Shown piece after piece: positions 3,696 through 36,907 of a stretch of DNA of 50,949 bases. The notes beneath the pieces are model-generated. The model worked only from the letters and a program-made list of their open reading frames with translations. It had not been told where the DNA came from and ran no database searches. The DNA comes from a plasmid: the sequence record NZ_CP034927.1; one strand, written 5' to 3'. The first letter of the stretch is position 1, and every line of letters begins with the position of its first letter. Made by a program: the position numbers and the translations under genes.

Positions 3696-4064
3696 ATGGA
3701 GATCATCAGCGGCGTCGAACGTCGCCGGCAATGGCGGGTGGCGGACAAGCTGCGGATCGTGGCCGAGGCTGAACGTCCCGGCGCGTGCTTCGTAGAGGTA
3801 GCTCGCCGGCATGAGGTGAGCCGGAGCGTACTTTGGGCTTGGCGCAAGCAGGCGCGGCAGGGCGTGCTGGTGGCCGAACCCGTGCCGATGTTCATGCCGG
3901 TGCAGGTGGCAGAGGACCTGCCGGCACCCGCCCCTCGGGCTGAGGCTGCGCCGGCGGCTTCTCCCCGGATCGAGATAGCCTTGCCGGACGGTACGGTGAT
4001 CCGCGTCGACGAGGGGATCAGCGCTGCCGCGCTGCGGCGTGTGATGGCGGCACTGCGCGGATGA
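3696..4064 (+). CDS. tnpA: IS66 TnpA (small HTH protein, orf1)
   Basis: MEIISGVERRRQWRVADKLRIVAEAERPGACFVEVARRHEVSRSVLWAWRK is the typical IS66 orf1. Confidence 0.85.
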   Translation: MEIISGVERRRQWRVADKLRIVAEAERPGACFVEVARRHEVSRSVLWAWRKQARQGVLVAEPVPMFMPVQVAEDLPAPAPRAEAAPAASPRIEIALPDGTVIRVDEGISAAALRRVMAALRG

Positions 4065-6834: not shown

Positions 6835-7692
6835 GGCGGGCACCGTCAACTTGCCGGCCTCGAGGCGACGAGGCTGATTGATCGACAACGGACTCCAGGG
6901 CGATCAAGCCCGTGCGGCGACCCCGCTGACCTCGGACCACACCTCGAACGCGCGCGCCCTTGCGGCACGATAGTCGCAGGCGGTGACGTGGTCCCGGCGA
7001 AGATGAAAGAGGTTGTTGATCCCGTCGTGGGCGGAAAGGAAGCGCTGCGCTTGGCCAGCAGACTTGAACCGCTTCATCCCTCGTTCTCGTCGTCGTGTCG
7101 GCTGATGCGAGTTCTCAGCACGGTTGTTCAGCCCCTTGTGCTGGCGGTGCTCGACGGAAGGCATCACCTCCTTCTTCGCGGCGCCGTAGCTTGCCAGCTT
7201 GTCGGTGATCATGACCCGTGGTGGCCGCATCTGCCGCTTCAGCAGCTTCCTGAGTAGCCGCTTGGCAGCTTGCTTATCTCGTCGGCTCTGCACCAGCACG
7301 TCGAGTACCATCCCGGCCTGATCGACGGCGCGCCAGAGCCAGTGCGTCACACCGTTGATCTTGAGGACGACCTCATCCAGCTGCCACTTGTCACCGGTGC
7401 GGGGCAGCCGGCAGCGGATCTGATTGGCGAAAGCCTGACCGAACTTGCGGCCCCATTGCCGCAGTGTTTCGTGGCTAACCACGATGCCGCGGAAGGCCAG
7501 CATCTCTTCCACCATCCGCAAGCTGAGTGGGAAGCGGAAGTAAAGCCACACCGCCTGGCTGATGATCTCGCCCGGAAAGCGATACCCGACGAAGCTGGGG
7601 CAGGCGGCGGAGGCGGTCATCCTACCCCACTACCGGTGGTAGGCAGCTCGGGCAAGCTTGCAGCCGGCCAACTTGACGATACCGGGCACACC
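6835..7692 (-). mobile_element. IS6-family insertion sequence (about 860 bp)
   Basis: A single transposase ORF is flanked by imperfect terminal IRs (GGCGGGCACCGTCAACTTGCCGGCC at the left versus the reverse complement of the right end, GGTGTGCCCGGTATCGTCAAGTTGGCCGGC). The boundaries are approximate, within a few bp. Confidence 0.65.
6904..7620 (-). CDS. IS6-family (IS26/IS6100-like) DDE transposase, 238 aa
   Basis: FPGEIISQAVWLYFRFPLSLRMVEEMLAFRGIVVSHETLRQW...DEVVLKINGVTHWLWRAVD...MITDKLASYGAA...NNRAENSHQPTRRRE aligns with the IS6100/IS26 transposase motifs. Confidence 0.85.
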   Translation of the reverse strand: MTASAACPSFVGYRFPGEIISQAVWLYFRFPLSLRMVEEMLAFRGIVVSHETLRQWGRKFGQAFANQIRCRLPRTGDKWQLDEVVLKINGVTHWLWRAVDQAGMVLDVLVQSRRDKQAAKRLLRKLLKRQMRPPRVMITDKLASYGAAKKEVMPSVEHRQHKGLNNRAENSHQPTRRRERGMKRFKSAGQAQRFLSAHDGINNLFHLRRDHVTACDYRAARARAFEVWSEVSGVAARA

Positions 7693-21348: not shown

Positions 21349-22861
21349 ATAGTCGGCCTTGAACAACGTCTTCAGGCTGTCGCCCCTGCGAGCAGGGTGC
21401 GGCCTGTCGGGACGCTGGCTTGGCTGATCGGGGTGAGGATTGCCTGTCGGAGGGCGGCGAGGAGAGCGGCCAAAAGGGCCCTGAGGTGGGCGAGGATCTT
21501 GCGGATGTTGTGGCCGCAGCCGCAGAGGACGGCGTAGAGAGCATCGCCGAGCGTGCCCTTGAGGGCGCAGCGGGCGAGGCGGCCATCGGTCTTCATGTGG
21601 CCGATCTCGGGCTCGATGGCGCTGCGGCGGCGGAGCAGCCGGCGCAGGCGGGGCGTGAGGCCGCGGCTGGTGCCGCTGACGAGCACCCTGGTTGCCGTGA
21701 CGCCATGGCCGCGGTAGCCGCGATCGACCACGGCGAGGCTGGGACGCTGGCCGGTGAGGGTCTCGACCTGCTGGAGGGCGTCGGCGAGGGTGTGGCCGTC
21801 GTAGGGATTGCCGGGCTGGCTGCGCATGCCGACGACGAAGCCACCGGCGAGGGTGGTGGCGATGCTGACCTTCGTGCCGAACTCGTAGCGCACCCGCGCC
21901 TTGCCCTTGGCGATGCAGTCCACCTCGGGCTCGTGCAGGGCGTAGAGCTTGCGGGACGACTTCGGTGTCTGGAGCAGCAGGCGGGTGACGAGGGCGATGC
22001 GCTGCTCGATGCGCGCCCGCAGTGGCCCGTCAGGGACGGCGCCGAGCTTGCGTTCAACATCGCGCAGGATGCGGCCGGTGTAGCCCTTGAGCGTGCGCAA
22101 CGCCTTGCGCATGCGGCGGAACTGCCGGGCGTGGGCGTAGCGCCCCACCTGGCCGGCCAGGCGCGGCGCCAGGCGATTGTAGTTCTGGCGCAGGGCGATC
22201 CCGGCCTTGTGCGCCAGCGTCACCAGCGAGTGGCGGGCCCGCTCATAGAGGCGGCTGTCGGTCGGATGGGCGATGGCCTTCTCCATCACTGTGGTGTCCA
22301 CTGCGATCTCGGCCAAGCTGTTCGACGTCACAGCTCCCGAAGCCTGAGCCGCCTCGATCGTCCTGGTCAGCAACCACTCGACACCTTCCTCACCGATGCG
22401 ACCGCGCCAGCGGCTGAGAGAGGAGGGATGGATGGGCGCACGGTGCTGGAAGAAGGTCTCACCCGTGAAGTGCTGGAAGTACGGGTTCTCCACCCAGCGC
22501 GCGAGCACCGCCTCGTCGGAGAGGCCATGGGCGTGCTGGAGGTACATCAGCCCGGCGACCAGACGCGGATGCGTGGCCGGCCGTCCCTCAGCGGCGGGGA
22601 AGAAGCCGGCCCATTCCCGCTCGAACCAGGACCAGTCGATCAGCGCCGCCAGCCGCACCAGTTCGTGCCGCCCATCGATCATGTCGACCAGCCGCGGCCG
22701 CAGCAGATCGGCCTGTTCCGGCGGGCGCGGGCGGTGCTTCATGCCCACAAGATTCGCAGGGTTTGTCGTCGAAAACAATCGAACCCTGCAAATCCAGGTC
22801 GCCGAGCCCGGAAAATCTCACAGCTAGATCAGTGCCTTACGAGTTATTCAAGGCCGACTAT
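21349..22861 (-). mobile_element. IS1182/IS5-superfamily insertion sequence (about 1.5 kb)
   Basis: Terminal IRs are ATAGTCGGCCTTGAACAAC (left) and the reverse complement of the right end, ATAGTCGGCCTTGAATAAC. It carries a single 468-aa transposase. Confidence 0.7.
21372..22778 (-). CDS. IS1182/IS5-family DDE transposase (468 aa)
   Basis: It has an InsH-like N-terminal domain (HPRLVAGLMYLQHAHGLSDEAV) and a DDE_Tnp_1-like C-terminal domain (LAVVDRGYRGHG...). Confidence 0.85.
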   Translation of the reverse strand: MFSTTNPANLVGMKHRPRPPEQADLLRPRLVDMIDGRHELVRLAALIDWSWFEREWAGFFPAAEGRPATHPRLVAGLMYLQHAHGLSDEAVLARWVENPYFQHFTGETFFQHRAPIHPSSLSRWRGRIGEEGVEWLLTRTIEAAQASGAVTSNSLAEIAVDTTVMEKAIAHPTDSRLYERARHSLVTLAHKAGIALRQNYNRLAPRLAGQVGRYAHARQFRRMRKALRTLKGYTGRILRDVERKLGAVPDGPLRARIEQRIALVTRLLLQTPKSSRKLYALHEPEVDCIAKGKARVRYEFGTKVSIATTLAGGFVVGMRSQPGNPYDGHTLADALQQVETLTGQRPSLAVVDRGYRGHGVTATRVLVSGTSRGLTPRLRRLLRRRSAIEPEIGHMKTDGRLARCALKGTLGDALYAVLCGCGHNIRKILAHLRALLAALLAALRQAILTPISQASVPTGRTLLAGATA

Positions 22862-23079
22862 TTAACCCGCTTTTTAGCATCCTCCAATCGATGGTCGATG
22901 TAATAAGCATGCACGGTAGCGTACATCAGGTTAACCCGTTTAACAAAATTTGGTTTGCGCCTAATAGAAAGTTTTAACTTGGCTACGTGCTGCGCAATCC
23001 GCCAATCCCGCTCTCGCCATATTGCCAAACTTTCGCGAGCTTCTTCCTCTGTCAAAGGGTCAAATTCATCATCCATCAT
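22858..23079 (-). CDS. small hypothetical protein (73 aa) in AT-rich islet; stop codon lies inside the IS end so the 3' end may be truncated
   Basis: MMDDEFDPLTEEEARESLAIWRERDWRIAQHVAKLKL. The codon usage is AT-rich, unlike the rest of the window. Confidence 0.35.
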   Translation of the reverse strand: MMDDEFDPLTEEEARESLAIWRERDWRIAQHVAKLKLSIRRKPNFVKRVNLMYATVHAYYIDHRLEDAKKRVK

Positions 23080-23492
23080 GGCACTTCACTGATATTGATC
23101 GCGTCAGTTTATTTCTTTGGCTCCTGTTTGCAACAAAAAACAACTAATTTTAATGCTTTCAACCATGAATAGATTTAAAGAAAGATTTTCTACTGGATAG
23201 CAATCTACTAAGATCATTATTTGGGAATTTAGCAGATTTCAGATAAGTTGGCGTCATTGTGATAAAAATTGATCATATTAATCGTTTTAAAATTTCTTTG
23301 ATGTTTACAGGGTCTAGCATGTGAAATAGACTACGGATGCAGTTTTTTTGATATGATGCAATGCGGCGCTACGTAACTCTTTAGCGCGGAACTAGAACAT
23401 TCTAACCTATACTATAAATTATATGTGAGAGGAGAAATATAGTTTCAGCATGCGGTAAATCTACTACATACATTAAGCGAAAGGACACACAG

Positions 23493-23831
23493 ATGATAAA
23501 TGACCAAACTGTTGCGATCCCGGTGTTAGTCGCACACTTAATTCGATCGTTATTTTATATATTTCAAGGTTTGATGATTGCCCTGGTTATCGCAGTGCTA
23601 AATTTAGCTTTGCTATCCAGCATGATTGAAGGGTCGAGCAACTCGAACTCAGGATCTTTCCTGGTGGCCATTATTGCAACAGTTGCAGTTTCTGGCTGCT
23701 TCCTGTATTGGAATCAAGATTCGTCCGTACGGCGTGCGCAAACCCTAGGTTTAAGGCCTTCAATCTGGCGTCAGGTCGGTTTCTTTGTTGGGCTTCTCGG
23801 GCTTGCAGCTATCATGATCATTATTAAATGA
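23493..23831 (+). CDS. small hypothetical membrane protein (112 aa, about 3 predicted TM helices) in AT-rich islet
   Basis: The hydrophobic segments are IPVLVAHLIRSLFYIFQGLMIALVIAVLNLALL, FLVAIIATVAVSGCFLYW and VGFFVGLLGLAAIMIII. AGGA lies upstream of the ATG. Confidence 0.45.
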   Translation: MINDQTVAIPVLVAHLIRSLFYIFQGLMIALVIAVLNLALLSSMIEGSSNSNSGSFLVAIIATVAVSGCFLYWNQDSSVRRAQTLGLRPSIWRQVGFFVGLLGLAAIMIIIK

Positions 23832-23905
23832 GTATAAACTTGCTGATTTGAAATAAGAAAACGCTATATCTATAGGTGTTTTCAGTCGGATTGAAGCACT
23901 TATAC

Positions 23906-24096
23906 GGAGTCGGCCTTGAATAACCTGTTCAGGCTGCTTGGGCTGTAACTGGATGACGGTCCGGTTGGGCGATTGCGTCGATGAGGCTAGCGAGGATGGC
24001 GGCCAAGAGAGCCCTGAGGTGGGCGAGGATCTTGCGGATGTTGTGACCGCAGCCGCAGAGCACAGCGAAGAGGGCGCCGCCGAGGGTGCCCTTTAG
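23906..24096 (-). pseudogene. remnant (IR plus about 60 3'-terminal codons) of a second, diverged IS1182-like element
   Basis: AGTCGGCCTTGAATAAC followed by sequence about 80 percent identical to 21352..21560. It is cut off by the next IS. Confidence 0.55.
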
Positions 24097-24101
24097 AGCG
24101 C

Positions 24102-24758
24102 CTAACAGAACCGCCTAATCTGGCCGAGGCAGACGAGGGCGCAGGCGAGTGTGGTGAAGGCGAGGTGGATGTCGGCGCGGCGCTCGTAGCGGATGGTCAG
24201 GCGTCGGTAGCGGGCGAGCCAGGCGAAGGTACGCTCCACCACCCAGCGGTGTCGTCCGAGGCGGGCGCTGCTCTCGATGCCACGGCGTGCGATGCGCGGG
24301 GTGATGCCACGGGCGCGGCACTCCCGGCGGCAGCGACGGTGGTCGTAGGCCTTATCGGCGTGGAGTTTGCCCGGCCTTTGCCGTGGGCGGCCGCGATGGC
24401 CGATCCTGATCCGCGGCACGGCATCCAGGGTGGGCGCCAGCATCATGCTATCGTGCCGGTTGGCCCCGCTGAGCGTCAGGCCAAGCGGCGTGCCGCGGGC
24501 GTCCGTGACGAGGTGGCGCTTCGTGCCTGGCTTGCCGCGATCCGTCGGGTTCGGGCCCGTCTCGGCGCCCCCCTTTTCGCCGGAACAGTGGCACTGTCCA
24601 GCGCGGCCCGCCGCCAGTCGATCTGCCCCGCAGCCTGCAACCGCTCCAGCAGCAGGCGGTGCAAGGCGGCCCAGACCCCGGCCGCCTGCCAGTCGCGCAG
24701 CCGCCGCCAGCAACTCATCCCGCAGCCGCAGCCCATCTCGGCGGGCAGCCTCTCCCAT
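24102..24758 (-). CDS. IS427-group transposase OrfB (DDE), expressed as OrfAB fusion via -1 frameshift near 24578..24587
   Basis: GEKGGAETGPNPTDRGKPGTKRHLVTDARGTPLG...WVVERTFAWLARYRRL. The slippery motif GCGAAAAGGGGGG (reverse complement of the plus strand) lies where the OrfA homology ends and the OrfB homology begins. Confidence 0.75.
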   Translation of the reverse strand: MGEAARRDGLRLRDELLAAAARLAGGRGLGRLAPPAAGAVAGCGADRLAAGRAGQCHCSGEKGGAETGPNPTDRGKPGTKRHLVTDARGTPLGLTLSGANRHDSMMLAPTLDAVPRIRIGHRGRPRQRPGKLHADKAYDHRRCRRECRARGITPRIARRGIESSARLGRHRWVVERTFAWLARYRRLTIRYERRADIHLAFTTLACALVCLGQIRRFC

Positions 24759-24913
24759 GGGATGCCGCTGACCAGCACGAACACGATCCCCGTCAATGCC
24801 GCCCGGTCCGCCAGCCGCGGCCGCCCGCCCTTGGGCTTGGGCCGCTCGGGCGGCAACAGCGGCTCAATCGCCGCCCAGAGATCATCAGAAACCAAAGGCT
24901 TCGCCATGCCCAC
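24476..24913 (-). CDS. IS427-group transposase OrfA (HTH)
   Basis: MAKPLVSDDLWAAIEPLLPPERPKPKGGRPRLADRAALTGIVFVLVSGIPWERLP. Confidence 0.75.
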   Translation of the reverse strand: MGMAKPLVSDDLWAAIEPLLPPERPKPKGGRPRLADRAALTGIVFVLVSGIPWERLPAEMGCGCGMSCWRRLRDWQAAGVWAALHRLLLERLQAAGQIDWRRAALDSATVPAKRGAPRRARTRRIAASQARSATSSRTPAARRLA

Positions 24914-26967: not shown

Positions 26968-27981
26968 ATGGTGACCGGGAAGGATAGAAGTTCGATGAAG
27001 GCTTCGTGGAAGGCTGTGCTCGGCCTGGCGGCGGTCGTCGCCGTCATGGCCGGTGGCTACGTCGCCTGGAGGCTCCACGGCCGCGAACCTGCCCTGCCCG
27101 CCTACATTGCCTCCACCAATGGCCGCATCGAGGCGGAGCAGTTCGACATCGCCAGCAAGCTCGCCGGCCGCGTGGTGGAGGTGACGGTCGAGGAAGGGCA
27201 GATGATGGCGCGCGGCGCGGTGATCGCACGATTGGACGACTCCACTTTGCAGGCTCAGCTCCGCGCCGCCGAGGCGCAGGTCGCCGAGGCGCAGCAGGCC
27301 ATCGCCACGGCCGAGGCGGAGCAGGCGAGGGCCGCCAGCAGCCGCCGGCTCGCGCAGACCGAACTCACCCGCACCCAGGAACTCGCCCGGGGCGGCTATG
27401 CACCGACCGAGCAACTCGACCAGCGCCGCTCCACGCTGCAGGTCGCCGAGGCGACGGTCACCGCCGCCGCGGCGGGCAGGCGCCGGGCCGATGCCACCCT
27501 CGCCGCCGCCCAGGCCAACGCCGCCCAGGTCCGCACCCTGCTGGATGACACCGTGCTGACCGCGCCGCGCGCCGGCCGGGTCCTCTATCGCCTCCTCCGC
27601 AGCGGAGAGGTCGTGGCGGCCGGGGGGCGTGTCGCGACCCTGATCGACCCGAGCGACGTCTCCATGATCGTCTTCCTTCCTGCCGAGCAGGCTGGGCGCC
27701 TGGCCTATGGGGCGGAGGCCAGGCTCGTCCTCGACCCGGTGCCGCAATACGTCCTGCCCGCGATCGTCAGCTTCGTGGCCCCCGAGGCGCAGTTCACGCC
27801 GCGCCAGGTCGAGACGGCGCAGGAACGAGGGAACCTCATGTTCCGCGTGAAGCTGCGCCTGCCGGCGTCGCTGCTGCAGGCGCATATCGAGCAGGTGAAG
27901 ACCGGCGTGCGCGGCCTGGGCTTCGTCCGGCTCGACACAACGCAACCCTGGCCGGAACGGCTGCAGGTCCGGCTGCCATGA
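26968..27981 (+). CDS. yhiI: HlyD-family periplasmic adaptor (YhiI-like)
   Basis: It has an N-terminal TM anchor, then a coiled-coil rich in AQLRAAEAQVAEAQQAIATAEAEQ, then a beta-barrel domain. It sits upstream of rbbA. The start could be 26995 instead. Confidence 0.75.
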   Translation: MVTGKDRSSMKASWKAVLGLAAVVAVMAGGYVAWRLHGREPALPAYIASTNGRIEAEQFDIASKLAGRVVEVTVEEGQMMARGAVIARLDDSTLQAQLRAAEAQVAEAQQAIATAEAEQARAASSRRLAQTELTRTQELARGGYAPTEQLDQRRSTLQVAEATVTAAAAGRRRADATLAAAQANAAQVRTLLDDTVLTAPRAGRVLYRLLRSGEVVAAGGRVATLIDPSDVSMIVFLPAEQAGRLAYGAEARLVLDPVPQYVLPAIVSFVAPEAQFTPRQVETAQERGNLMFRVKLRLPASLLQAHIEQVKTGVRGLGFVRLDTTQPWPERLQVRLP

Positions 27982-30698
27982 CCGCGGTGCCCGTCGCGTC
28001 ACTTCATGACGTCCGCCACCACTACGGCAGCGTCGCGGCGCTGGATCGGGTGACGCTCGATATCCCCGCCGGGGTCATGGCCGGACTGGTCGGGCCGGAC
28101 GGGGTAGGAAAATCCACCCTGCTGGGCCTGCTCGCCGGCGTGCGGCGGCCGCAGGAGGGGGAGATCGTGGCCCTCGGCGGCGACCTGCGCGACCCGTCGG
28201 TGCTGACCGGGGCGCGGCAGCGGATCGCCTATATGCCCCAGGGACTGGGGCGGAACCTCTACCAGACCCTTTCAGTGGCCGAGAACATCGACTACTTCGC
28301 CCGCCTCTTCGGCCAGGGCGCGCAGGAGCGGCGGCAGCGCATAGCGGGCCTGACCCGCGCCACCGGCCTTTCCCGCTTCCTGGACCGGCCCGCCGGCAAG
28401 CTCTCGGGCGGGATGAAGCAGAAGCTCTCGCTCTGCTGCGCCCTGGTGCGCGACCCCGACCTGCTGATCCTGGACGAGCCGACCACAGGGGTGGACCCGC
28501 TCTCCCGCCGGCAGTTCTGGACGCTGATCGACCGGCTGCGCGAACGCCGCCCGCAGATGAGCGTGCTGGTCGCCACCGCCTACATGGACGAAGCGCAGCG
28601 CTTCGACTGGCTGGCGGCCATGGATGCGGGGAAGGTGATCGCCACCGGCAACCCGGCAGCGATCCTGGAGCGTACCGGTAGCCGGAACCTGGACGAAGCC
28701 TTCATCGCCCTGATGCCCGAGGAGCGGCGGCGTGGCTATCAGCCCGTGGTCATCACGCCGCCACCCCCGCCGCACCCTGGCGAGGCGCCGGTGATCGAGG
28801 CGAAGGGGCTGACCAGGCGGTTCGGTGACTTCGTGGCCGTAGACCATGTGAACCTCAGCGTCCGGCGCGGCGAGATCTTCGGATTCCTAGGTTCCAACGG
28901 CTCGGGCAAGAGCACGACGATGCGCATGCTGACCGGGCTGCTGCCCGCCACCGAGGGCGAGGCGCGCATCCTCGGCCAGCGGCCCGGATCGGGCGGCGAC
29001 GCACGACGGCATGTCGGCTACATGTCCCAGTCCTTCTCCCTCTACGGCGAGCTGACGGTGCGGCAGAACCTCCAGCTGCACGCCGATCTCTTCCACCTGC
29101 CGCGCGACCGTGCCGCCAAGCGGCTGGCCCAGGTGATGCACGACTTCGACCTGGAGGACGTCGCCGATGCGGCGCCGGAATCCCTGCCGCTGGGCGTGCG
29201 GCAGCGGCTTCAGCTCGCGGCCGCGGTGGTGCACGAGCCGGAGCTGTTGATCCTGGACGAGCCGACCTCGGGCGTCGATCCGGTGGCACGCGACCTGTTC
29301 TGGCGCCACCTGCTGCGCCTGTCGCGCGAGCAGGAGGTGACGATCTTTATCTCAACCCATTTCATGAACGAGGCAGAGCGCTGCGATCGCATCTCGCTGC
29401 AACACGCCGGCCGCGTCCTGGCCATGGGTTCGCCGGCGGAACTGGTGGCGCAGCGCCATGCCGCCACGCTGGAGGAGGCCTTCATCGGCTGGCTGGAGGA
29501 AGCCGCCGGACCGGACGAGGCGGGCGGGGATCTGCCGGCCCCCATGCCCGGCGCACAAGGTCGGGCCGCCTGGCTCTTCAACCCCCGCCGCCTGCTGGCC
29601 TGCGCCTGGCGTGAGTCGCTGGAACTGCTGCGTGACCCGATCCGGCTGGCCTTCGCCCTGCTCGGCCCGGTGCTGCTGACGATCGCCTTCGGCTTCGGCA
29701 TCTCCTTCGACGTCGAGAACCTGCCCTATGCCGTGCTGGATGGGGATCGCACACCGGAAAGCCGCAGCCTGCTGGAAAGCTTCGCCGGCTCCCGCTACTT
29801 CTCCGAACAGCCACCCCTGGCGGACGCCGCCGCGGCCGAGGCGCGCCTGCGGGCGGCGGGGATCGCCCTGGCGGTGGAGATACCGCCGGGCTTCGGCCAC
29901 GACCTTCGCCGTGGCGACCGGCCCGAGGTGGCGGTGGCCATCGACGGCGCCATGCCCTTTCGCGCGGAAACGGCGCGCAGCTACGTGCTGGGCCTGGCGC
30001 AGACCTGGCTGCGCGACCAGGAGGCGCTTTCGCCGCTGCCGCGCAGCCCCGATCTGCTGACACTGGAGCCACGCTTCCACTACAACCAGGCCTTTCGCAG
30101 CGCGGTCGCCATCGTGCCGGGCGTGATCATGCTGATGCTGATGCTGGTCCCGGCCATGCTCGCTGCCGTCGGCGTGGTGCGGGAGAAGGAGAGCGGCGCC
30201 ATCGCCAACTTCCGCGCCACACCGGTCACGGCGCCGGAATTCCTGATCGGCAAGCAGATCCCCTACTTCGCCGTCGCCCTGAGCAGCTTCGTCATGCTGC
30301 TGTTCGTCGCCCGCGTGGTCTTCGACGTGCCTGTGCTGGGCTCCGGCCCCGCGCTGGCCATGGGCGCCGCGCTCTATGTGCTGGCCTCCACCGGCTTCGG
30401 GTTGCTGGTGTCCGCCTTCGTCTCCAGCCAGGTGGCGGCAATCTTCGCCGCGGCCATCCTTTCCATCGTACCGGCGGTGAACTTCTCCGGCCTGCTGGTA
30501 CCGGCTGCTTCCCTCACCGGTCCGGCACTCGGCATCGGCCTTGCCTTTCCGGCCAGTTGGTTCCAGCAGATCTCGGTCGGTGCGATGAGCAAGGGGCTGC
30601 ACTTCGCAGAGCTATGGCACAACCACCTGGTGCTGGCGGGTTTCGCGGTGCTGTTCATCGGCGCGGCCACATTGCTGCTCCGCAAGCAGGAGCCCTGA
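27978..30698 (+). CDS. rbbA: RbbA-like fused ABC transporter (two ATPase domains plus ABC-2 permease), 906 aa
   Basis: The Walker A motifs are GPDGVGKST and GSNGSGKST, with two LSGGMKQK-like signatures and a C-terminal 6-TM ABC-2 domain. The size and order match E. coli yhiI-rbbA-yhhJ. Confidence 0.85.
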   Translation: MTAVPVASLHDVRHHYGSVAALDRVTLDIPAGVMAGLVGPDGVGKSTLLGLLAGVRRPQEGEIVALGGDLRDPSVLTGARQRIAYMPQGLGRNLYQTLSVAENIDYFARLFGQGAQERRQRIAGLTRATGLSRFLDRPAGKLSGGMKQKLSLCCALVRDPDLLILDEPTTGVDPLSRRQFWTLIDRLRERRPQMSVLVATAYMDEAQRFDWLAAMDAGKVIATGNPAAILERTGSRNLDEAFIALMPEERRRGYQPVVITPPPPPHPGEAPVIEAKGLTRRFGDFVAVDHVNLSVRRGEIFGFLGSNGSGKSTTMRMLTGLLPATEGEARILGQRPGSGGDARRHVGYMSQSFSLYGELTVRQNLQLHADLFHLPRDRAAKRLAQVMHDFDLEDVADAAPESLPLGVRQRLQLAAAVVHEPELLILDEPTSGVDPVARDLFWRHLLRLSREQEVTIFISTHFMNEAERCDRISLQHAGRVLAMGSPAELVAQRHAATLEEAFIGWLEEAAGPDEAGGDLPAPMPGAQGRAAWLFNPRRLLACAWRESLELLRDPIRLAFALLGPVLLTIAFGFGISFDVENLPYAVLDGDRTPESRSLLESFAGSRYFSEQPPLADAAAAEARLRAAGIALAVEIPPGFGHDLRRGDRPEVAVAIDGAMPFRAETARSYVLGLAQTWLRDQEALSPLPRSPDLLTLEPRFHYNQAFRSAVAIVPGVIMLMLMLVPAMLAAVGVVREKESGAIANFRATPVTAPEFLIGKQIPYFAVALSSFVMLLFVARVVFDVPVLGSGPALAMGAALYVLASTGFGLLVSAFVSSQVAAIFAAAILSIVPAVNFSGLLVPAASLTGPALGIGLAFPASWFQQISVGAMSKGLHFAELWHNHLVLAGFAVLFIGAATLLLRKQEP

Positions 30699-30702
30699 CG
30701 TC

Positions 30703-31809
30703 ATGCGCCATCTGTCCAACATCCTCTGGCTGGGGCTGAAGGAACTGCGGGTGCTGGGTGCCGATCCAGTCCTCCTGGTCTTGCTCGCCTATACCTTCAC
30801 CGTAGCGGTCTATACCGTGGCCACCGGCATGAAGACGGAGGTCCGCAACGCTGCCGTAGCAGTGCTGGACGAGGACCGCTCCGACCTTTCCCGCAGCCTC
30901 GCCGCGGCCCTGCTGCCACCACAGTTCCAGTCGGCGGTCCCGATCATGGCGCCTGAGGTAGGGCCTGGCCTGGATGCGGGCCGCTTCACCTTCATTCTGC
31001 AGGTCCCGCCACGCTTCGAATCGGATCTGCTGTCCGGCCACCCGGTGACGCTCGCCCTGGATGTGGATGCCACGGCGATGTCGCAGGCGGGCAACGGCGC
31101 CAGCTATGTCAGCCAGATCGTGCAGCAGGAGGTGGCGAAGCGACTGGGCAGCGCGGCAGAGCCCCTGGATCTTGTGATCCGCACCCGTTTCAACCCGAAC
31201 AGCCAGCCGGAATGGTTCACCTCCGTCATGCAGGTCGTGAACAGCACGTTGATCCTCTCCATCATCCTGCCCGGCGCAGCCCTGCTGCGCGAGCGCGAGC
31301 ACGGAACCTTGGAGCATCTCCTGGCCATGCCGGTCGGACCGCTGGAGATCCTGCTCGCCAAGATCGGCGCCAATGCATTGGTGATCGTCGGTGCCGCCGT
31401 GCTGTCGCTGCTGCTGGTGGTGCGCGGCCTGTTGGGCGTGCCGGTGGCGGGCTCCATCTTCCTCTTCGTGCTGTGCACCGTCCTGTTCCAGGTCTCGGTC
31501 GCCGCACTGGGCGTGCTGCTGGCGACCGTGACCAGCTCCACCGGACAGTTCGGGCTGTTGGCCCTGCCGGCCATCATCCTGATGATGCTGCTTTCGGGCA
31601 GCATGACGCCGCTGGAAAGCATGCCAGCATGGTTGCAGTCCGTCGTACAGGTACTTCCGACGACGCAGTTCGTTGCGATCGCCCAGGCCATCCTCTTCCG
31701 GGGTGCGGGGCTGGAGGTCGTGGCAGGCCGGATGGCTGCACTGGCTGCCCTGGGGCTGGGCTTCCTGACAGTCACCTACCTGCGGCTGCGCGCCACTCTG
31801 GCGGGGTGA
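30703..31809 (+). CDS. yhhJ: ABC-2 family permease (YhhJ-like)
   Basis: 368 aa. It has an N-terminal TM plus a periplasmic loop, then the ABC-2 TM bundle. It is immediately downstream of rbbA. Confidence 0.8.
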   Translation: MRHLSNILWLGLKELRVLGADPVLLVLLAYTFTVAVYTVATGMKTEVRNAAVAVLDEDRSDLSRSLAAALLPPQFQSAVPIMAPEVGPGLDAGRFTFILQVPPRFESDLLSGHPVTLALDVDATAMSQAGNGASYVSQIVQQEVAKRLGSAAEPLDLVIRTRFNPNSQPEWFTSVMQVVNSTLILSIILPGAALLREREHGTLEHLLAMPVGPLEILLAKIGANALVIVGAAVLSLLLVVRGLLGVPVAGSIFLFVLCTVLFQVSVAALGVLLATVTSSTGQFGLLALPAIILMMLLSGSMTPLESMPAWLQSVVQVLPTTQFVAIAQAILFRGAGLEVVAGRMAALAALGLGFLTVTYLRLRATLAG

Positions 31810-32347
31810 TGCGGGCGGCGTGCCGAGCCGTGTCGCCCAGCAACCGCAGCGCCGCGGCGAGCCTTTCCGCCTCATTCAGTGGATCGGTCCGGAACACCGG
31901 CAGCCGCGTCAACAGGCGGGCCAGGGCGAGCGCCTGCTCCACCGGGTGCTCGGCGGCGACCGCGCCCACCTCGCCACCGTGGCCACCCCAGGTGGCGGGC
32001 ATGGCCCGCTCCAGGCGATGCAGGTCGGAGGCGGCGCTCCAGGAGCCGGTGAGGCCGGCGGCGCGTAAGCCAAGGTCGTGCGGATGGGTGGGCAGGCCGG
32101 CCTGGGTGAGCCAGGCCGCGGCCTCGGCGAGCGCCAGACGGGCGACCAGGCCCTCGCGCACGGCCTCCGAAGCAGCCCCGGCGCGGGCGTCGAGGCGCGA
32201 GACGAGGTCCTCGGCCTGACTCAGCGGCAGCAGCAGCCAGGCGGGATCGGGCGCGGCCGCCGGCGGAGGCTGACCGGACCGGCGCGTGGCCCAGGGCAGC
32301 GTGCTGCCGTCGTCGGGATCACCTTCATCCTCATCCCAGCCTGCCAT
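31772..32347 (-). pseudogene. 5'-half paralog (truncated) of the DUF1612-like gene at 35795..36907
   Basis: MAGWDEDEGDPDDGSTLPWATRRSGQ...LLPLSQAEDLVSRLDARAGAASEAVREGLVARLALAEAAAWLTQAGLPTHPHDLGLRAAGLTGSWSAASDLHRLERAMPATWGG is about 85-90 percent identical to the full copy. The homology ends about 31840 and the ORF runs into the yhhJ 3' end. Confidence 0.5.
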
Positions 32348-32405
32348 GCACCAAACCTCCGCCCGAAGACGTTGAGAGGAGCTTCTGAGTTCCCGGTCTT
32401 CGTAC

Positions 32406-32697
32406 TCAGGATAGGGAAAAAACAGCAGATTGGAAATCGTTCTGAAATTCAAAGACGGGTATCGCTTGTGCTACTCCGCCGCCGGGCAAAACGCCCCCGG
32501 CGACCCCTTCCCGTCCCCGCAAGCAGCGCCCTGCATTCCGTCCGCAAATGGGGATTAGCGGACGGAATGAGGGACGCCGGTTGCGGGGGCATGACGCGGC
32601 CGCCGGGGGCGTTTTGCCCAGCGTCGGAGTAGCACAAGCGATACCCGCTTTTGAATTTCAGTCTGATTTTCAAGCCGCTGTTTTTCTATTATCCTGA
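32406..32697. repeat. about 290-bp degenerate palindrome: 97-bp arms (about 86 percent identical as inverted repeats) around a 98-bp core that contains a perfect 12-bp IR CATTCCGTCCGC-N12-GCGGACGGAATG and an 8-bp IR CCCCGCAA/TTGCGGGG, all sharing one centre (32551/32552)
   Basis: The arms were aligned by hand and are 32406..32502 versus the reverse complement of 32601..32697. Weaker mirror similarity continues outward on both sides. Confidence 0.7.
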
Positions 32698-32890
32698 TCA
32701 CGAAGATCAGGAGCCCCCAAGCCCCTTCAACAGCTCCGGACGGAGGGATTCACAGGACGCTACCGCCGACCAGTGCCGGCACGGGTCGCCACTGTGTTTT
32801 GATGGGATCCGAGGCTGTCCAGGACCCTATGGGAAGCGCATTGGGACCAATCGCCACATTTGACGGCTTTCCCGGGGCAGAGAAGAACGT

Positions 32891-34381
32891 ATGTCGGAAC
32901 CACTGTCGCCGCCGATCCTGCGGACGGGAATCCCCGAATTCGATGTCGTTCTGCGGGGAGGTCTGCCGCGTCACCGCCTGCATCTTCTCGAGGGCGCACC
33001 GGGCTCAGGCAAGACGACGATCGCGCTGCGCTTCCTGCTGGAGGGGATCGCCCATGGCGAACGCGGCCTCTACGTCACCCTCTCGGAAACGGCGGAGGAG
33101 CTGACCGCTTCGGCAGCCTCCCATGGATGGTCGCTCGAGGGCATCGACCTCTTCGAACTCGTTCCGGCTGAGGCGGAACTCGATCGGCAGCAGACGGTCT
33201 TCTACCCGGCGGAAGCCGAGTTCGGCGAGACGATGCGCACCATCACCAGGCGCATCGAAGCGACCAAGCCGGACCGGATCGTCATCGACAGCCTTTCGGA
33301 ACTGCGCCTGCTCGCCCAGGATCCACTGCCCTACCGCCGGCAGCTCCTCGCACTCAAGCGCTTCCTCCAGGGCCGTCAGGCCACGACGTTCGTCCTCGAC
33401 GATCTGACTTCGGGAGGCGACGCGGATCTGCACAGCCTCGTTCATGGCGTCATCTCACTCGAGCAGATCGAGCGGAACTACGGCGCAGCCCGCAGGCGGC
33501 TGCGGGTCGCCAAGATGCGGGGCAGTGACTACCAGAGCGGCTGGCACGACTTCGCCCTCGTCACCGGTGAGGTGCTCGTCTTCCCGAGCCTCATCGCGGA
33601 GGAGCACAGGACACCGGTCGTGGGCGCTCCCCTGCCGAGCGGAGTGGCCAGTCTCGACGAGATGCTGGGCGGCGGCCTCGACCGCGGCACGACGACGATG
33701 CTTGTTGGGCCCTCGGGGGTGGGCAAGTCGTCCATGGCGGTCCGCTATGCCATGGCGGCCGTGGCCGCCGGGGAGCATGCCGCCTATTTCGCCTTTGACG
33801 AGACCCTCCAGACGTTCTCGCACCGGGCGGCCGCTCTCGGCCTTGCCGTCGAGGAAGGGATGGAGACAGGCCACCTGAGCTGGAGCCGGGCCAGCCCGTC
33901 CCGCCTTTCGGCTGGCGAGTTCGTCTGGCGCGTACGGCGGGAGGTCGAGGACAGGCAGGCCCGCGTCGTGGTGATCGACAGCCTCAACTCCTACCTCGGT
34001 ACCATGCCGGAGGAGCGGTCGCTCATGCTCCACATGCACGAGCTCCTGACCTACCTCAACAATCAAGGCGTGGTGACGATCCTCGTCCTGGCCCAGCCCG
34101 GCGTGGTGGGCGATGTGAACAGCCCGGTCGACCTCAGCTTCCTCAGCGACACGGTCGTTCTGCTGCGCTTCTTCGAGGCGAACGGCGAAGTCCGCAAGGC
34201 GGTTTCGGTCGTCAAGAAGCGGAGCGGGGTGCACGAGCTCGCCATCCGGGAGTACAAGCTTTTCCCGCACGGCATGCAGGTCGGCCCGCCGCTGCAAGGC
34301 CTGCAAGGGGTGCTGACCGGTGTCCCGGCCTATACCGGTCCCCTGGGGGGGCTTATCGGCGGGAATGATGCAGCAGGCTGA
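32891..34381 (+). CDS. kaiC: KaiC-family double RecA-like ATPase (circadian clock protein KaiC homolog), 496 aa
   Basis: The two Walker A motifs are GAPGSGKTT and GPSGVGKSS, with the typical KaiC CI/CII duplication and a C-terminal ...DLSFLSDTVVLLRFFEANGEVRKAVSVVKKRSG. Confidence 0.85.
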   Translation: MSEPLSPPILRTGIPEFDVVLRGGLPRHRLHLLEGAPGSGKTTIALRFLLEGIAHGERGLYVTLSETAEELTASAASHGWSLEGIDLFELVPAEAELDRQQTVFYPAEAEFGETMRTITRRIEATKPDRIVIDSLSELRLLAQDPLPYRRQLLALKRFLQGRQATTFVLDDLTSGGDADLHSLVHGVISLEQIERNYGAARRRLRVAKMRGSDYQSGWHDFALVTGEVLVFPSLIAEEHRTPVVGAPLPSGVASLDEMLGGGLDRGTTTMLVGPSGVGKSSMAVRYAMAAVAAGEHAAYFAFDETLQTFSHRAAALGLAVEEGMETGHLSWSRASPSRLSAGEFVWRVRREVEDRQARVVVIDSLNSYLGTMPEERSLMLHMHELLTYLNNQGVVTILVLAQPGVVGDVNSPVDLSFLSDTVVLLRFFEANGEVRKAVSVVKKRSGVHELAIREYKLFPHGMQVGPPLQGLQGVLTGVPAYTGPLGGLIGGNDAAG

Positions 34382-35642
34382 CCCCTCCGCTGCCGACGTC
34401 TTCCTGATCCTCGCACCCATTGGACGCGACGCCGCGGAAATCGCCCGTGTGCTCGATGGGATGGATGTCTCGACACGGGTGGCAGGAACGCTCGCTGAAC
34501 TCTGCGCCATCCTCGAGCCCAACCATGGCTCGGGCTTCGCGGCGTTGTTGCTCACCGAGGAAGCACTCATTGGTGGAGCCGGGGAGCTGACCGCTTTCCT
34601 CCGGCGGCAACCGCCCTGGTCGGACCTGCCTGTGATCCTCCTGACCTCTGGTGGCCGATGGCGTGGAGCCGAGGGGCGCTGGGCTGCTTTCGAAGCCCTC
34701 GGCAACGTCACCCTGCTGACCCGCCCGCTGCATGCGGAGACCCTCCTCAGTGCGGCACGGGCCGCGCTCCGGGCGCGGGCGCGCCAGCACGAAACCCGCA
34801 GCCACCTCGAGGCCCTGAAGCTTGCGGCGGAAACGCTCGAGGCGCGCGTCGCCGAACGTACCGAGGCGCTGGAGGCCGAGACGGCCGGGCGTATCGCAGC
34901 CCAGGAGCGTCTTCTCCAGGTGCAGAAGATGGAGGCGATCGGTCAGCTCGCGGGAGGGGTGGCACACGACTTCAACAACTCCTCGGCGGTTGTGCTGGCG
35001 GGCCTCTCGCTGCTGGAACGGCGATACGGCGCGGCGCTGGCGGCCTCGGGCCCGGGGGCATCCCGGCTGCTGGCGGAGCTGCGCGATGGAGCCGAGCGCG
35101 GCGCGGAAGTCTCCCGCAGGCTTCTCGCCTTCTCGCGCCGGGAGAAGCTGCATGCCACGGAATTGGATGCGGCCCAGGTCCTGGGCGGCCTGCGCACGAT
35201 GCTGGCCAATGCGCTCGGGCCGGGGATCAGGATACGGGTGGAAGTACCGGCACAGGCCGCGCGGATCCGGGCCGACCGCCGCCAACTCGAAACGGTGCTG
35301 ATCAATCTCGCCATCAACGCTCGCGACGCCATGCCGAACGGCGGTGAGGTGACCTTCACCGCGGCGGCGGAAGTGGTTCCGGCGGACCATCGGACTCATG
35401 TCCCGGACCTGAAGCCCGGAGCCTATGTGCGCCTCGTCGTCGCGGACGCCGGAACCGGCATGGACATGAAAACCCTTGCGCGGGCGACCGAACCCTTCTT
35501 CACGACGAAACCGCAGGACCGCGGCACAGGCCTCGGGCTTTCCATGGCGGACGGTTTCGCGGTCCAGTCCGGGGGTGCCCTGCGCCTCGAGAGCGAATCT
35601 GGCCGGGGGACGAAGGTCTTTCTCTGGCTGCCGCAGGCCTGA
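34365..35642 (+). CDS. histidine kinase with N-terminal receiver-like domain (HisKA plus HATPase_c), coupled to kaiC
   Basis: The H-box is GGVAHDFNNS. The G-boxes are VADAGTGMD and GTGLGLS. The N-terminal CheY-like domain appears to lack the phospho-acceptor Asp (ALLLTEEAL). The gene overlaps the kaiC 3' end. Confidence 0.8.
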   Translation: MMQQADPSAADVFLILAPIGRDAAEIARVLDGMDVSTRVAGTLAELCAILEPNHGSGFAALLLTEEALIGGAGELTAFLRRQPPWSDLPVILLTSGGRWRGAEGRWAAFEALGNVTLLTRPLHAETLLSAARAALRARARQHETRSHLEALKLAAETLEARVAERTEALEAETAGRIAAQERLLQVQKMEAIGQLAGGVAHDFNNSSAVVLAGLSLLERRYGAALAASGPGASRLLAELRDGAERGAEVSRRLLAFSRREKLHATELDAAQVLGGLRTMLANALGPGIRIRVEVPAQAARIRADRRQLETVLINLAINARDAMPNGGEVTFTAAAEVVPADHRTHVPDLKPGAYVRLVVADAGTGMDMKTLARATEPFFTTKPQDRGTGLGLSMADGFAVQSGGALRLESESGRGTKVFLWLPQA

Positions 35643-35794
35643 AGGACCGGTTCGCACCGACGATGGCAGCCCTCTGCCTTGACCGCCTCCATCCCGGCCG
35701 GGATCGACGAACGGCATGGAAGGGGAGGAGGTCTGCCATACACCGGACGGGGCCCCGAAGGCTCCCCCTCACGGCGCCTGCAGAGGTCGGCGGC

Positions 35795-36907
35795 ATGACA
35801 GGCTGGGACGAAGACGATCCAGAAGACACCATCGGGCCGCCCTGGGCCACGCGCCGGTCGGGTCGGCATCCACCGATGGCCATGCCTGATCCCGCCCAGC
35901 TGCTCCTCCCGCTGAGCCAGGCCGAGGACCTGCTCTCGCGCCTCGACGCCCGTGCCGGGGCCGCTTCCGAGGCGCTGCGCGAGGGCCTGGTCGCCCGCCT
36001 GGCACTCGCCGAGGCCGCAGCCTGGCTCACCCAGGCGGGACTGCCCACCCATCCGCACGACCTTGGCTTACGCGCCGCCGGCCTCACCGGCTCCTGGAGC
36101 GCCGCCTCCGACCTCCACCGCCTGGAGCGGGCCATGCCCGCCACCTGGGGCGGAAGCGATGGCGAGGTGGGTGCGGTCGCGGCCGAGCACCCGGTGGAGC
36201 AGGCCCTCGCCCTGGCCCGCCTGCTGACGCGGCTGCCGGTCTTTCGCGGCGATCCGCTCGATGACGCCGATCGCCTTGCCGCGGCGCTGCGCAGCTTGGG
36301 CGACAGCGCCTGGCCGGCGGCCACCGCCTCGCCCGGTGCCGCTATCCCGGACGTCGCGGCCTGGCGGCGAGGCTGGCTGCAAACGGGGGAGGGGGCGCCG
36401 GCCCTCCTCGCCGCCGCGCAGGCCGCGGCCCGCTGGCTGCGCGAGGCGGGGGAAGGCGACATCGCCCGGCCGGAGCCGCAGCAGGCGATCTTCCTGGCCG
36501 CCGTGCTGCTGAAGCGCCGGCAGCGGCTGGCGCACGTGCCGCTGCCCTTCTGGGCAGGGGCGGGGCCGGGGCAGCGGCTGCCGCGACCCACCGGGGATCC
36601 GGCCACGTGGCCCTTGCTGTTCCTCGCCCGCGTGGCCGCGGCGGCCCGGCGCGGACTGGAAGTGCTCGACCGGCTGGAGGCAGCACAGGCGAAGCTGGTC
36701 GCCCTGACCGAAGGCACGCGGCGCTCCTCCTCGCTGCCCGCCGCGGCGGCGCTGGTGCTGCGCCGGCCACTCGTCACCGCGCCGCAACTGGCGAAGGACC
36801 TCGGCCTGACCCATCAGGGCGCGCTGCTGATCCTGGCCAGGCTGCAGGAGGCCCGGATCGTCCAGGAGGTGACGGGCAGGGGGAGCTTCAGAGCTTTCGG
36901 CACATAG
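35795..36907 (+). CDS. DUF1612-like protein with C-terminal helix-turn-helix (rhizobial plasmid-associated family)
   Basis: 370 aa. The C-terminal APQLAKDLGLTHQGALLILARLQEARIVQEV is a helix-turn-helix. The DUF1612 assignment is from memory of rhizobial homologs and should be verified. Confidence 0.55.
   Translation: MTGWDEDDPEDTIGPPWATRRSGRHPPMAMPDPAQLLLPLSQAEDLLSRLDARAGAASEALREGLVARLALAEAAAWLTQAGLPTHPHDLGLRAAGLTGSWSAASDLHRLERAMPATWGGSDGEVGAVAAEHPVEQALALARLLTRLPVFRGDPLDDADRLAAALRSLGDSAWPAATASPGAAIPDVAAWRRGWLQTGEGAPALLAAAQAAARWLREAGEGDIARPEPQQAIFLAAVLLKRRQRLAHVPLPFWAGAGPGQRLPRPTGDPATWPLLFLARVAAAARRGLEVLDRLEAAQAKLVALTEGTRRSSSLPAAAALVLRRPLVTAPQLAKDLGLTHQGALLILARLQEARIVQEVTGRGSFRAFGT

Follow-up and report, generated by a model that had tools for sequence, protein, structure and literature searches.

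Directly upstream of a kaiC gene, the plasmid sequence NZ_CP034927.1 (50,949 nucleotides (nt), analysed here in full and called the window) carries a long near-palindrome. We consider it likely, with a probability of roughly 70%, that two paralogous plasmid modules were fused here head to head, at a short recombination site. Its arms appear to be two diverged leaders of DUF1612/HTH_13 genes, and its centre is a 34-base-pair (bp) lox-like site that elsewhere lies next to a gene for a tyrosine recombinase. As such, the palindrome looks like a scar of plasmid shuffling and not like a purpose-built regulatory hairpin.

The near-palindrome has a single axis of symmetry

The near-palindrome spans positions 32356–32746, about 390 bp, and is centred on 32551.5. 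When the region was compared with its own reverse complement by blastn, the match extended over 32356–32746 in 392 alignment columns at 78.6% identity (E = 2e-90), while an inverted-repeat search returned arms of 173 nt each (32377–32549 and 32554–32726) that are 80% complementary. The initial annotation of this DNA had described a palindrome of 290 bp; the palindrome is real, but it is longer than proposed, as the comparison with the reverse complement reveals. The smaller elements that were described with it could all be reproduced. The 97-bp arms (32406–32502 and 32601–32697) are 85.6% identical as inverted repeats, above the level of about 60% below which the annotation regarded arm identity as near random. 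The 98-bp core between them is 71% self-mirrored and contains a perfect 12-bp inverted repeat, CATTCCGTCCGC (32534–32545) and GCGGACGGAATG (32558–32569), separated by the 12-bp spacer AAATGGGGATTA, as well as an 8-bp inverted repeat, CCCCGCAA (32515–32522) and TTGCGGGG (32581–32588). The 97-bp arms, the core and both short repeats share the centre at 32551.5.

This symmetry is far above chance, since the mirror identity at 7,165 other centres in the window averaged 28% (standard deviation 4%, maximum 43%). The folding prediction that had been suggested as a check gave a strong result: the 391 nt, taken as single-stranded DNA, form a single predicted hairpin of −151 kcal/mol, compared with −67 ± 4 kcal/mol for shuffled sequences (z = −19). 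Furthermore, mirror similarity runs past the palindrome. A truncated gene on the left mirrors the 5′ half of the gene at 35795–36907 on the right (85% identity at the protein level, ~82% in DNA), and the inverted repeat that preceded the arrival of kaiC would therefore have had arms of about 750 bp. The ancestral structure thus appears to have been a head-to-head gene pair with inverted arms of that length.

A very strong predicted hairpin on a plasmid rich in insertion sequences could in principle serve replication or transfer (as a single-strand origin, an oriT or an oriV), or else be an element with long terminal inverted repeats of the kind seen in miniature inverted-repeat transposable elements (MITEs). 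We regard both as very improbable. The arms are homologous to gene leaders and not to transposon ends (see below), no target-site duplication was seen, and no second copy of an arm was detected when the region was searched by blastn against the entire window. The single copy and the leader homology likewise led us to reject a MITE or an element resembling repetitive extragenic palindromes. Neither Rfam families nor transfer RNAs were matched in the window (Rfam, ARAGORN), and the pattern of the central site was not found in viral contigs. The replication hairpin listed among the options of the initial annotation fares poorly, given that the RepA and ParA genes of the related plasmid pTT14-7 lie 6–12 kb from the palindrome, while a role in transfer is at odds with the typing of all related plasmids as non-mobilizable and without a relaxase. 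Inverted duplications are also a known artefact of long-read assembly, arising from chimeric palindromic reads. In this case, however, three assemblies made independently share the junction but not the right arm, the arms have diverged with insertions and deletions, and a deleted derivative exists in two further plasmids, so that an artefact is hardly credible.

Both arms resemble leaders of DUF1612/HTH_13 genes

When the palindrome was searched against PLSDB with blastn, matches were found only on Roseomonas plasmids. The whole palindrome recurred only in CP025064 and CP099478, whereas a single arm (~225 nt) was matched in about 18 records, directly 5′ of genes annotated as 'helix-turn-helix domain-containing protein'. 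Between 12 and 15 such Roseomonas leaders can be aligned over their full length, and they have in common the block GAGTAGCACAAGCGATACCCG, TTTCAGA, CTGTTTT, a −10-like TATCCT, ACGAAG and a GGAGG ribosome-binding site. Because both arms of the window hold every one of these blocks, each appears to be a copy of the ~200-bp promoter/leader that precedes DUF1612/HTH_13 genes on Roseomonas plasmids. In the left arm the conserved block lies at 32456–32476, TATCCT is read as AGGATA on the plus strand (32408–32413) and GGAGG is found ~10 nt before the ATG; the corresponding positions in the right arm are 32627–32647, 32690–32695 and 32742–32746. The earlier suggestion of an inverted DUF1612 leader upstream of kaiC is therefore upheld, both arms aligning fully with the upstream regions of DUF1612/HTH_13 genes on about 20 Roseomonas plasmids. 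The two arms are 76–80% identical to one another in the leader and ~82% in the coding part; the right arm is 70–78% identical to any other arm, with a best PLSDB match of 80.8%.

The promoters in these leaders are putative and are assigned from the conservation of the −10-like TATCCT; a scan of 32250–32950 for the sigma-70 consensus found no promoter, and one weak, non-conserved terminator-like hairpin lies in the same interval. A conserved RNA structure in the leader was considered and rejected, RNAalifold giving a weak fold for 13 leaders (−10.95 kcal/mol, with a covariation term of −1.19). The features of the region are as follows.

27978–30698 and 30703–31809, plus strand: RbbA-type ATP-binding cassette (ABC) transporter (Pfam and NCBIfam scans).
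31772–32347, minus strand: truncated DUF1612-like open reading frame (ORF) of 191 residues, the coding part of the left arm (BLASTP, 85% identity to residues 1–180 of the 35795–36907 protein).
32348–32534, minus strand: left arm, putative DUF1612-type promoter/leader (alignment with 12 Roseomonas leaders).
32535–32568, no strand: lox-like site of 34 bp, centre of the palindrome (conserved core, recombinase linkage, mosaic breakpoints).
32569–32746, plus strand: right arm, a second, paralogous putative DUF1612-type promoter/leader, now upstream of kaiC (leader alignments).
32739–35781, plus strand: inserted block with kaiC and a histidine kinase gene (99.5% identical to R. gilardii U14-5 plasmid 2; absent from pTT14-7).
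32891–34381, plus strand: KaiC (Pfam KaiC).
34320–35642, plus strand: histidine kinase (Pfam HATPase_c).
35716–35766: remnant of a tyrosine recombinase gene, 17 codons (tblastn).
35795–36907, plus strand: full-length DUF1612/HTH_13 gene, 370 residues, the likely original partner of the right arm (Pfam HTH_13, C-terminal).

The 191-residue ORF matches residues 1–180 of the HTH_13 protein at 85% identity and is therefore a truncated paralogue of that protein, pointing away from the palindrome. Its homology to the full gene stops at ~31801, where the ABC permease gene has its 3′ end; it has a weak match to NCBIfam RHE_PE00001 and is also annotated in CP025064 and CP099478. The full-length protein is 84–92% identical to Roseomonas plasmid proteins and scores 86 bits against RHE_PE00001, which is under the cut-off, and its family is a distant relative of RHE_PE00001/DUF1612, a group that has been classed with Fido domains (PMC2686095). 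A literature search on DUF1612/DUF1403 returned that paper and two incidental mentions, nothing more.

The axis coincides with a conserved 34-bp lox-like site

The site at the axis, 32535–32568, reads ATTCCGTCCGCAA, ATGGGGAT and TAGCGGACGGAAT in a 13-8-13 arrangement, and its arms differ at one position (A versus T). It has the design of a Cre/lox-type target, being ~34 bp long with two 13-bp inverted arms and an asymmetric spacer of 6–8 bp. Where a locus has a single leader, that leader stops at the 12-bp inverted repeat on which the palindrome is centred. The core shared by the sites reads TTCCGTCCGC-AAA-N6-TTA-GCGGACGGAA, to which one base added on each side gives the 34-bp site; with the N6 centre the pattern is TCCGTCCGCWAA-N6-TTWGCGGACGGA. 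A profile search with the leader (nhmmer) detected the site alone, without the leader, upstream of DUF1612 homologues at 36–58% protein identity. Moreover, the 12-bp core, which the initial annotation had proposed to look for in other plasmids, does recur: the site was found in 12 further PLSDB/genome loci and in 37 metagenome loci, the latter coming from an exact-pattern scan that fixed AAA and TTA. Over these ~50 loci the site arms are 96–100% conserved, and the central 6 bp vary freely. In all 12 loci that came to light without use of the search pattern, AAA faces the recombinase gene described below and TTA faces DUF1612. AAA...TTA is kept in the window site, whose polarity is thus native, matching the right arm. 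A literature search with the half-site gave unrelated matches and no description of the site; the published candidate table (PMC10250229) lay outside this comparison.

Related repeats were noted in several places (L numbers denote individual loci of the comparison). Extra direct copies of the half-site, reading tttccgtccgc-acccgtccgc-t-TCCGTCCGC, lie beyond the recombinase-side arm in L060 (~535–560), in L064 (the same element) and in L066 (~1697–1721), and may be accessory binding sites. Distant DUF1612 homologues without a recombinase (L019 ~3866–3893, L033 ~3908–3934 and L013) have a different repeat, GGAAGGAAA-N7-TTTNSTTCC, ~100 nt upstream of the gene, which may be that family's own operator.

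The site accompanies a Cre-like tyrosine recombinase

By tblastn, a tyrosine recombinase gene lies on the AAA side of the site, transcribed away from it, in all but four of the PLSDB/genome loci with the site (L002–L004, L008, L020, L026, L031 and L077–L081); the four without an adjacent recombinase are the three palindromic loci and L076. In the metagenome, the recombinase was found in 15–16 of the 21 loci with at least 1.3 kb of sequence on the AAA side, always in the same orientation. On the TTA side, where 18 loci offer 1.3 kb or more, a DUF1612 gene was present in only 3. The partner of the site is therefore the recombinase, and the DNA on the opposite side varies. The same counts make the helix-turn-helix protein of 35795–36907, previously put forward as a binder of the core, a poor candidate for that role.

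The recombinase, of which WP_075801122.1 (R. gilardii plasmid 3) and WP_265548234.1 are family members, belongs to the Pfam family Phage_integrase. Its closest solved relative is Cre (E = 1.5e-11, about 47 bits), to which it aligns over Cre residues 47–329, keeping the equivalents of R173, E176, K201, H289, R292 and Y324, with W315 replaced by His; its NCBIfam scores are 45 bits for XerD (cut-off 330) and 33 bits for XerC (cut-off 335). The gene is present in a single copy per plasmid on 17 Roseomonas plasmids and also on Azospirillum, Skermanella, Indioceanicola and Magnetospirillum plasmids, and the wider family is found on 196 plasmids. Distant homologues have related but different 13-8-13-like repeats upstream, namely ATTCCGCGCGATA-AGTGGGGC-TATCGCACGGAAT in Magnetospirillum and ACGTCCGATAAG-CACC-CTTATCGGACGT in Indioceanicola; such lox-like repeats precede homologues of 40–50% identity in L084 (1230–1261) and L085 (1204–1241). 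The recombinase therefore looks active and plasmid-specific. In its 50 kb the window has no cognate recombinase gene, only the 17-residue remnant at 35716–35766 (tblastn). Its site is intact but orphan; the enzyme would need to be supplied by a co-resident plasmid, and could then act on it.

Toxin-antitoxin genes occur near the recombinases. An AbrB/MazE-PIN pair stands between the recombinase gene and the site in many R. mucosa and R. gilardii plasmids (L002, L003, L004, L078 and L080), its promoter having its own 8-bp inverted repeat, GGATATAC-N10-GTATATCC; the pair is absent from R. gilardii plasmid 3 (L077) and from most metagenome loci. In pTT14-7 (L007, 5952–7085), the only tyrosine recombinase of the plasmid is a 37%-identical paralogue that adjoins a ParDE toxin-antitoxin pair, with half-site-like motifs, GCGCACGGAA and GCGGACGGCA, in the neighbouring intergenic region. 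These may constitute a second, related recombinase/site system in the same strains.

Natural mosaics break at the site

We then compared pairs of plasmids around the site, with offsets counted such that the site occupies positions 0–31. L078 and L080 are 100% identical over 1,500 nt on the left, while on the right the first mismatch falls at +33 and identity then ranges from 48 to 96% per 50-nt bin through leader and gene. L002 and L078 are likewise 100% identical on the left, their differences starting at −1 and in the spacer. Between pTT14-7 and the window there is one mismatch in 1,500 nt on the left, the left arm included, and on the right the two part at +34; between CP025064 and the window the left differs by a 7-nt patch plus one or two isolated mismatches, while the right stays identical up to a first difference at +37. 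In these four plasmid pairs natural mosaic boundaries thus lie 0–5 bp from the site. A single left-hand sequence thus continues, across the site, into three right arms that are mutually 70–75% identical. Taken together, these data suggest that the site behaves as a crossover point and that the recombinase/site pair is active, and we infer that the site is where the recombinase makes its crossover, analogous to loxP for Cre or to attA/attD for IntA.

The ~200-bp leader next to the site diverges strongly among co-resident or sister plasmids (L078/L080 and L003/L002; +32 to +240), being 48–88% identical where the coding flanks are 80–100% identical. Crossover at the site could account for this, as could diversifying selection acting on a determinant of specificity.

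A strand switch at the half-site is the favoured origin of the junction

The native module on plasmids of Roseomonas and other Acetobacteraceae would consist of a recombinase gene (minus strand), the 34-bp site, a ~200-bp leader and a DUF1612/HTH_13 gene (plus strand), sometimes with the AbrB/PIN toxin-antitoxin pair by the recombinase gene. In the common ancestor of the window, CP025064 and CP099478, the recombinase side would have been replaced by an inverted leader and ~180 DUF1612 codons. With the junction inside the left 10–12-bp arm of the site, the short repeat of the site would have become the axis of an inverted repeat with ~750-bp arms. The right-hand partner would later have been exchanged at the site, giving three right arms on one left arm, and in the window the kaiC/kinase block would then have been inserted ~15 nt upstream of the right-hand start codon. 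The proposed outcome today is an orphan lox-like site flanked by two divergent DUF1612-type promoters, one facing the truncated ORF and the other facing kaiC, the kinase gene and the full DUF1612 gene.

Two details of the site bear on how the junction was made. Mirror similarity starts immediately outside the half-site, and AAA...TTA is kept, from which it follows that the left arm replaced the recombinase side and that the junction lies in the left half-site, outside the region of recombinase exchange. Tyrosine recombinases exchange strands within the 6–8-bp spacer. Such an exchange would have given a flipped …CCGCTAA, which is not seen, and this makes a strand switch during replication, or an exchange through short homology, between the 10–12-bp half-sites the most likely origin.

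A fusion made by the recombinase itself is an alternative that we think unlikely. Here, antiparallel synapsis of two sites would have joined two DUF1612 sides and, reciprocally, two recombinase sides. This would account for a symmetry axis that lies exactly at the site centre and for arms that are ~80% identical, as is directly expected when two different paralogous modules are joined; in addition, the nearly identical site arms make antiparallel synapsis conceivable, and natural crossover breakpoints do occur at the site. Nevertheless, the left end predicted by this route is …CCGCTAA, whereas the window, CP025064 and CP099478 all show …CCGCAAA, the recombinase-side form. The spacer TGGGGA is non-palindromic, so antiparallel partners would be mismatched, and no symmetric TAA...TTA or AAA...TTT site occurs among the 85 loci, which are a biased sample.

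Several points weigh against the fusion by strand switch at a recombination site. The function ascribed to the site is inferred from architecture, linkage and mosaic breakpoints, and a site just upstream of a recombinase gene could equally, or also, be an autoregulatory operator. The leader is the fastest-evolving stretch of the locus (48–88% identity where flanking genes reach 80–100%), and some of the drops in identity at the site may therefore be due to relaxed or diversifying selection and not to crossover. The preference for a strand switch over the recombinase turns on a single asymmetric base pair, which one later mutation could produce, and the metagenome loci, having been retrieved with AAA and TTA fixed, are unusable for a test of this asymmetry. 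Finally, the arms are 80% identical and not ~100%, so that a snap-back duplication would need great age or a later replacement of one arm.

Inverted duplications can be nucleated by short inverted repeats, through strand switching or snap-back synthesis, and quasi-palindromes undergo template switching; long palindromes are unstable in bacteria, being subject to SbcCD-dependent processing. As in a duplication nucleated by a short repeat, the axis here is at the centre of a pre-existing short repeat, the asymmetric loop is kept, the junction lies within the repeat, and both a centre-deleted derivative and a variant with arm-to-arm gene conversion exist. Unlike a fresh strand-switch duplication, the arms are ~80% identical and differ among the three plasmids, which precludes a certain reconstruction of the initial event; the divergence of the arms and the three different right arms may stem from exchange at a later time, or from paralogues having been the partners in an intermolecular switch. 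The locus also departs from the plain case in that the short repeat is itself a putative recombinase site, and hence a second route to rearrangement. Among the options given in the initial annotation, then, a recombination site is the most likely role for the core and a template-switch scar is the best reading of the whole, with the replication hairpin falling away.

The kaiC block arrived later

The plasmid pTT14-7 is collinear with the window, except that positions 32725 and 35781 of the window map 17 bp apart there: its right arm runs directly into the full DUF1612 gene, without the kaiC block. In the window, a plasmid of R. mucosa type, the last 14 nt of the native leader of 35795–36907 resume at 35781. 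The 3,043-bp block between (32739–35781), comprising kaiC, the kinase gene and 17 recombinase codons, is 99.5% identical to R. gilardii U14-5 plasmid 2, where it comes after that plasmid's own leader and first 10 DUF1612 codons; its left junction has a shared 8-mer of microhomology, GACGGAGG. Being absent from the collinear pTT14-7 and near-identical in R. gilardii, kaiC is therefore a late insertion ~15 nt upstream of the right-hand start codon, and the palindrome, contrary to what had been supposed, is not its native leader. In L004 (4001–7042) the block has an entire recombinase gene (minus strand) on one side and, on the other, 185 C-terminal codons of a paralogous one (plus strand); of the latter the window keeps only 17 codons (35716–35766). 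Recombination between recombinase genes, or between sites, may be what moves the block.

Other members of the lineage have been rearranged in other ways. Over 100-nt flanks, mirror identity is 0.82 in the window, 0.72 in pTT14-7, 0.38 in CP025064 and 0.19–0.35 in ~45 other loci, the measure being gap-free and the value for CP025064 the result of an indel. With gapped alignment CP025064 is palindromic, its arms being 95% identical and blastn finding the inverted copy. The outer parts of its arms are perfect mirrors, which points to arm-to-arm gene conversion. In CP025059, by contrast with these full-length forms, the centre is deleted and window position 32135 is joined to 35913; CP025193 gave the same match pattern in the similarity search. 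The fusion in CP025059 (L005, 7600–7640) cuts the left gene at about codon 71 and joins it to the right gene at about codon 39, within a 30-nt quasi-palindromic coding stretch; CP025193 appears to carry this derivative as well.

The initial annotation had looked to related replicons for conservation of the structure, but long mirror symmetry is confined to one lineage of three related plasmids (the window, CP025064 and CP099478), the other loci having one arm or the core alone. Rather than a conserved element, the palindrome is therefore a rearrangement derived within this lineage. This bears on the idea that it is a selected bidirectional operator, through which a common regulator such as the HTH_13 protein co-regulates kaiC and the divergent ORF. 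It is true that the DUF1612 protein ends in a helix-turn-helix domain and that GAGTAGCACAAGCGATACCCG, TTTCAGA, CTGTTTT, TATCCT and ACGAAG are present in both arms, so that both units very probably share factors. However, the symmetry is limited to those three plasmids, on the left there is only a truncated piece of a 'gene', kaiC was inserted late, the core goes with the recombinase and not with the helix-turn-helix gene, and a centre-deleted derivative persists in two plasmids. Co-regulation would then be a by-product of the duplication and not its reason, and we consider a selected operator improbable. It is likely that the truncated ORF and the kaiC-kinase-DUF1612 genes respond to the same signals simply as a consequence of the duplication, the long-range symmetry itself probably not being selected.

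There is also a bolder view, to which we give little chance. Recombinase, site and promoter-bearing leader might together form a platform for gene capture and expression on the multipartite genomes of Acetobacteraceae, loosely like the intI-attI-Pc arrangement of integrons, with the head-to-head, double-promoter version selected as a hub for expression in both directions. Modules like kaiC with its kinase would have docked at or next to the site, to be expressed from a DUF1612-type promoter. The variable DNA on the TTA side across metagenome loci, the three right-hand partners on one left arm, and the kaiC block just behind such a leader in two different plasmids all fit this view without demonstrating it.

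Relation to known recombination systems

Known pairs of Cre-type recombinases and targets include Cre/loxP of the phage-plasmid P1, Dre/rox, Vika/vox, Nigri/nox and the YR series (PMC10250229, PMC3553980). The present site resembles loxP in having 34 bp, two 13-bp inverted arms, an 8-bp asymmetric spacer and one asymmetric arm position, and in lying tens to a few hundred bp from the recombinase gene on a plasmid. Similarly, the Roseomonas recombinase aligns with nearly the whole length of Cre and keeps its catalytic residues, and its single copy per plasmid is what is expected for a function in dimer resolution or cointegration. On the other hand, the relationship to Cre is distant (~47 bits), the residue at Cre W315 is His, which most tyrosine recombinases have there, the sequence of the site bears no relation to loxP, and in the window the site is an orphan inside a long palindrome. 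The assignment of site and recombinase to the Cre/lox-type pattern, by which new recombinase/target pairs have been discovered (PMC10250229), is supported by architecture, adjacency and catalytic residues, all of them read from sequence.

IntA of Rhizobium etli cointegrates the plasmids p42a and p42d via attA/attD; attA, TCCGATAAGCATTACTTATCGGA, has 23 bp in a 9-5-9 arrangement with palindromic arms TCCGATAAG (PMC4928290). Both systems comprise a plasmid-borne tyrosine recombinase and a short palindromic site with a divergent centre, and exchange between co-resident plasmids, as carried out by IntA, is what the mosaic breakpoints here suggest. The Indioceanicola homologue (L084; 50% identical to the Roseomonas recombinase) has repeat arms TCCGATAAG/CTTATCGGA, equal to the attA arms, which hints that IntA belongs to this wider recombinase family. 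The window site itself falls outside the IntA/att group, with 13-bp arms and a longer spacer where attA is 9-5-9, and its inner arm, TCCGCAAAG, differs from the attA arm at two positions.

The XerC/XerD systems with their dif, cer and psi sites are likewise built on tyrosine recombinases and imperfectly palindromic core sites and serve to resolve multimers, and XerD and XerC are the best NCBIfam matches. We nevertheless rejected membership of Xer/dif: the scores (45 of 330 and 33 of 335 bits) are far under the cut-offs, there is a single gene and not a pair, and the site is 13-8-13 and not 11-6-11, and is unrelated to dif.

In the literature searched, the recombinase/34-bp-site pair was previously undescribed, although it is spread over plasmids of Roseomonas and other Acetobacteraceae and over soil metagenomes. 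Recombinase/target pairs of this kind are sought as orthogonal tools for genome engineering (PMC10250229). The pair also points to a way in which segments may be swapped among the many plasmids that co-reside in the skin commensal Roseomonas mucosa. With the palindrome explained as a product of plasmid recombination, no special regulatory element of kaiC is called for. Moreover, the related plasmids provide a natural series for the tolerance of palindromes, in which the structure is full, has homogenised arms, has lost its centre or is interrupted by an insertion.

Other features of the window

A DDE transposase gene follows the DUF1612/HTH_13 gene at 35795–36907. Elsewhere in the window, an AT-rich island (22858–24100; 41% GC compared with ~68% elsewhere) holds small ORFs, one of them for a predicted membrane protein, and sits between the insertion-sequence transposase genes 21372–22778 and 24102–24913.

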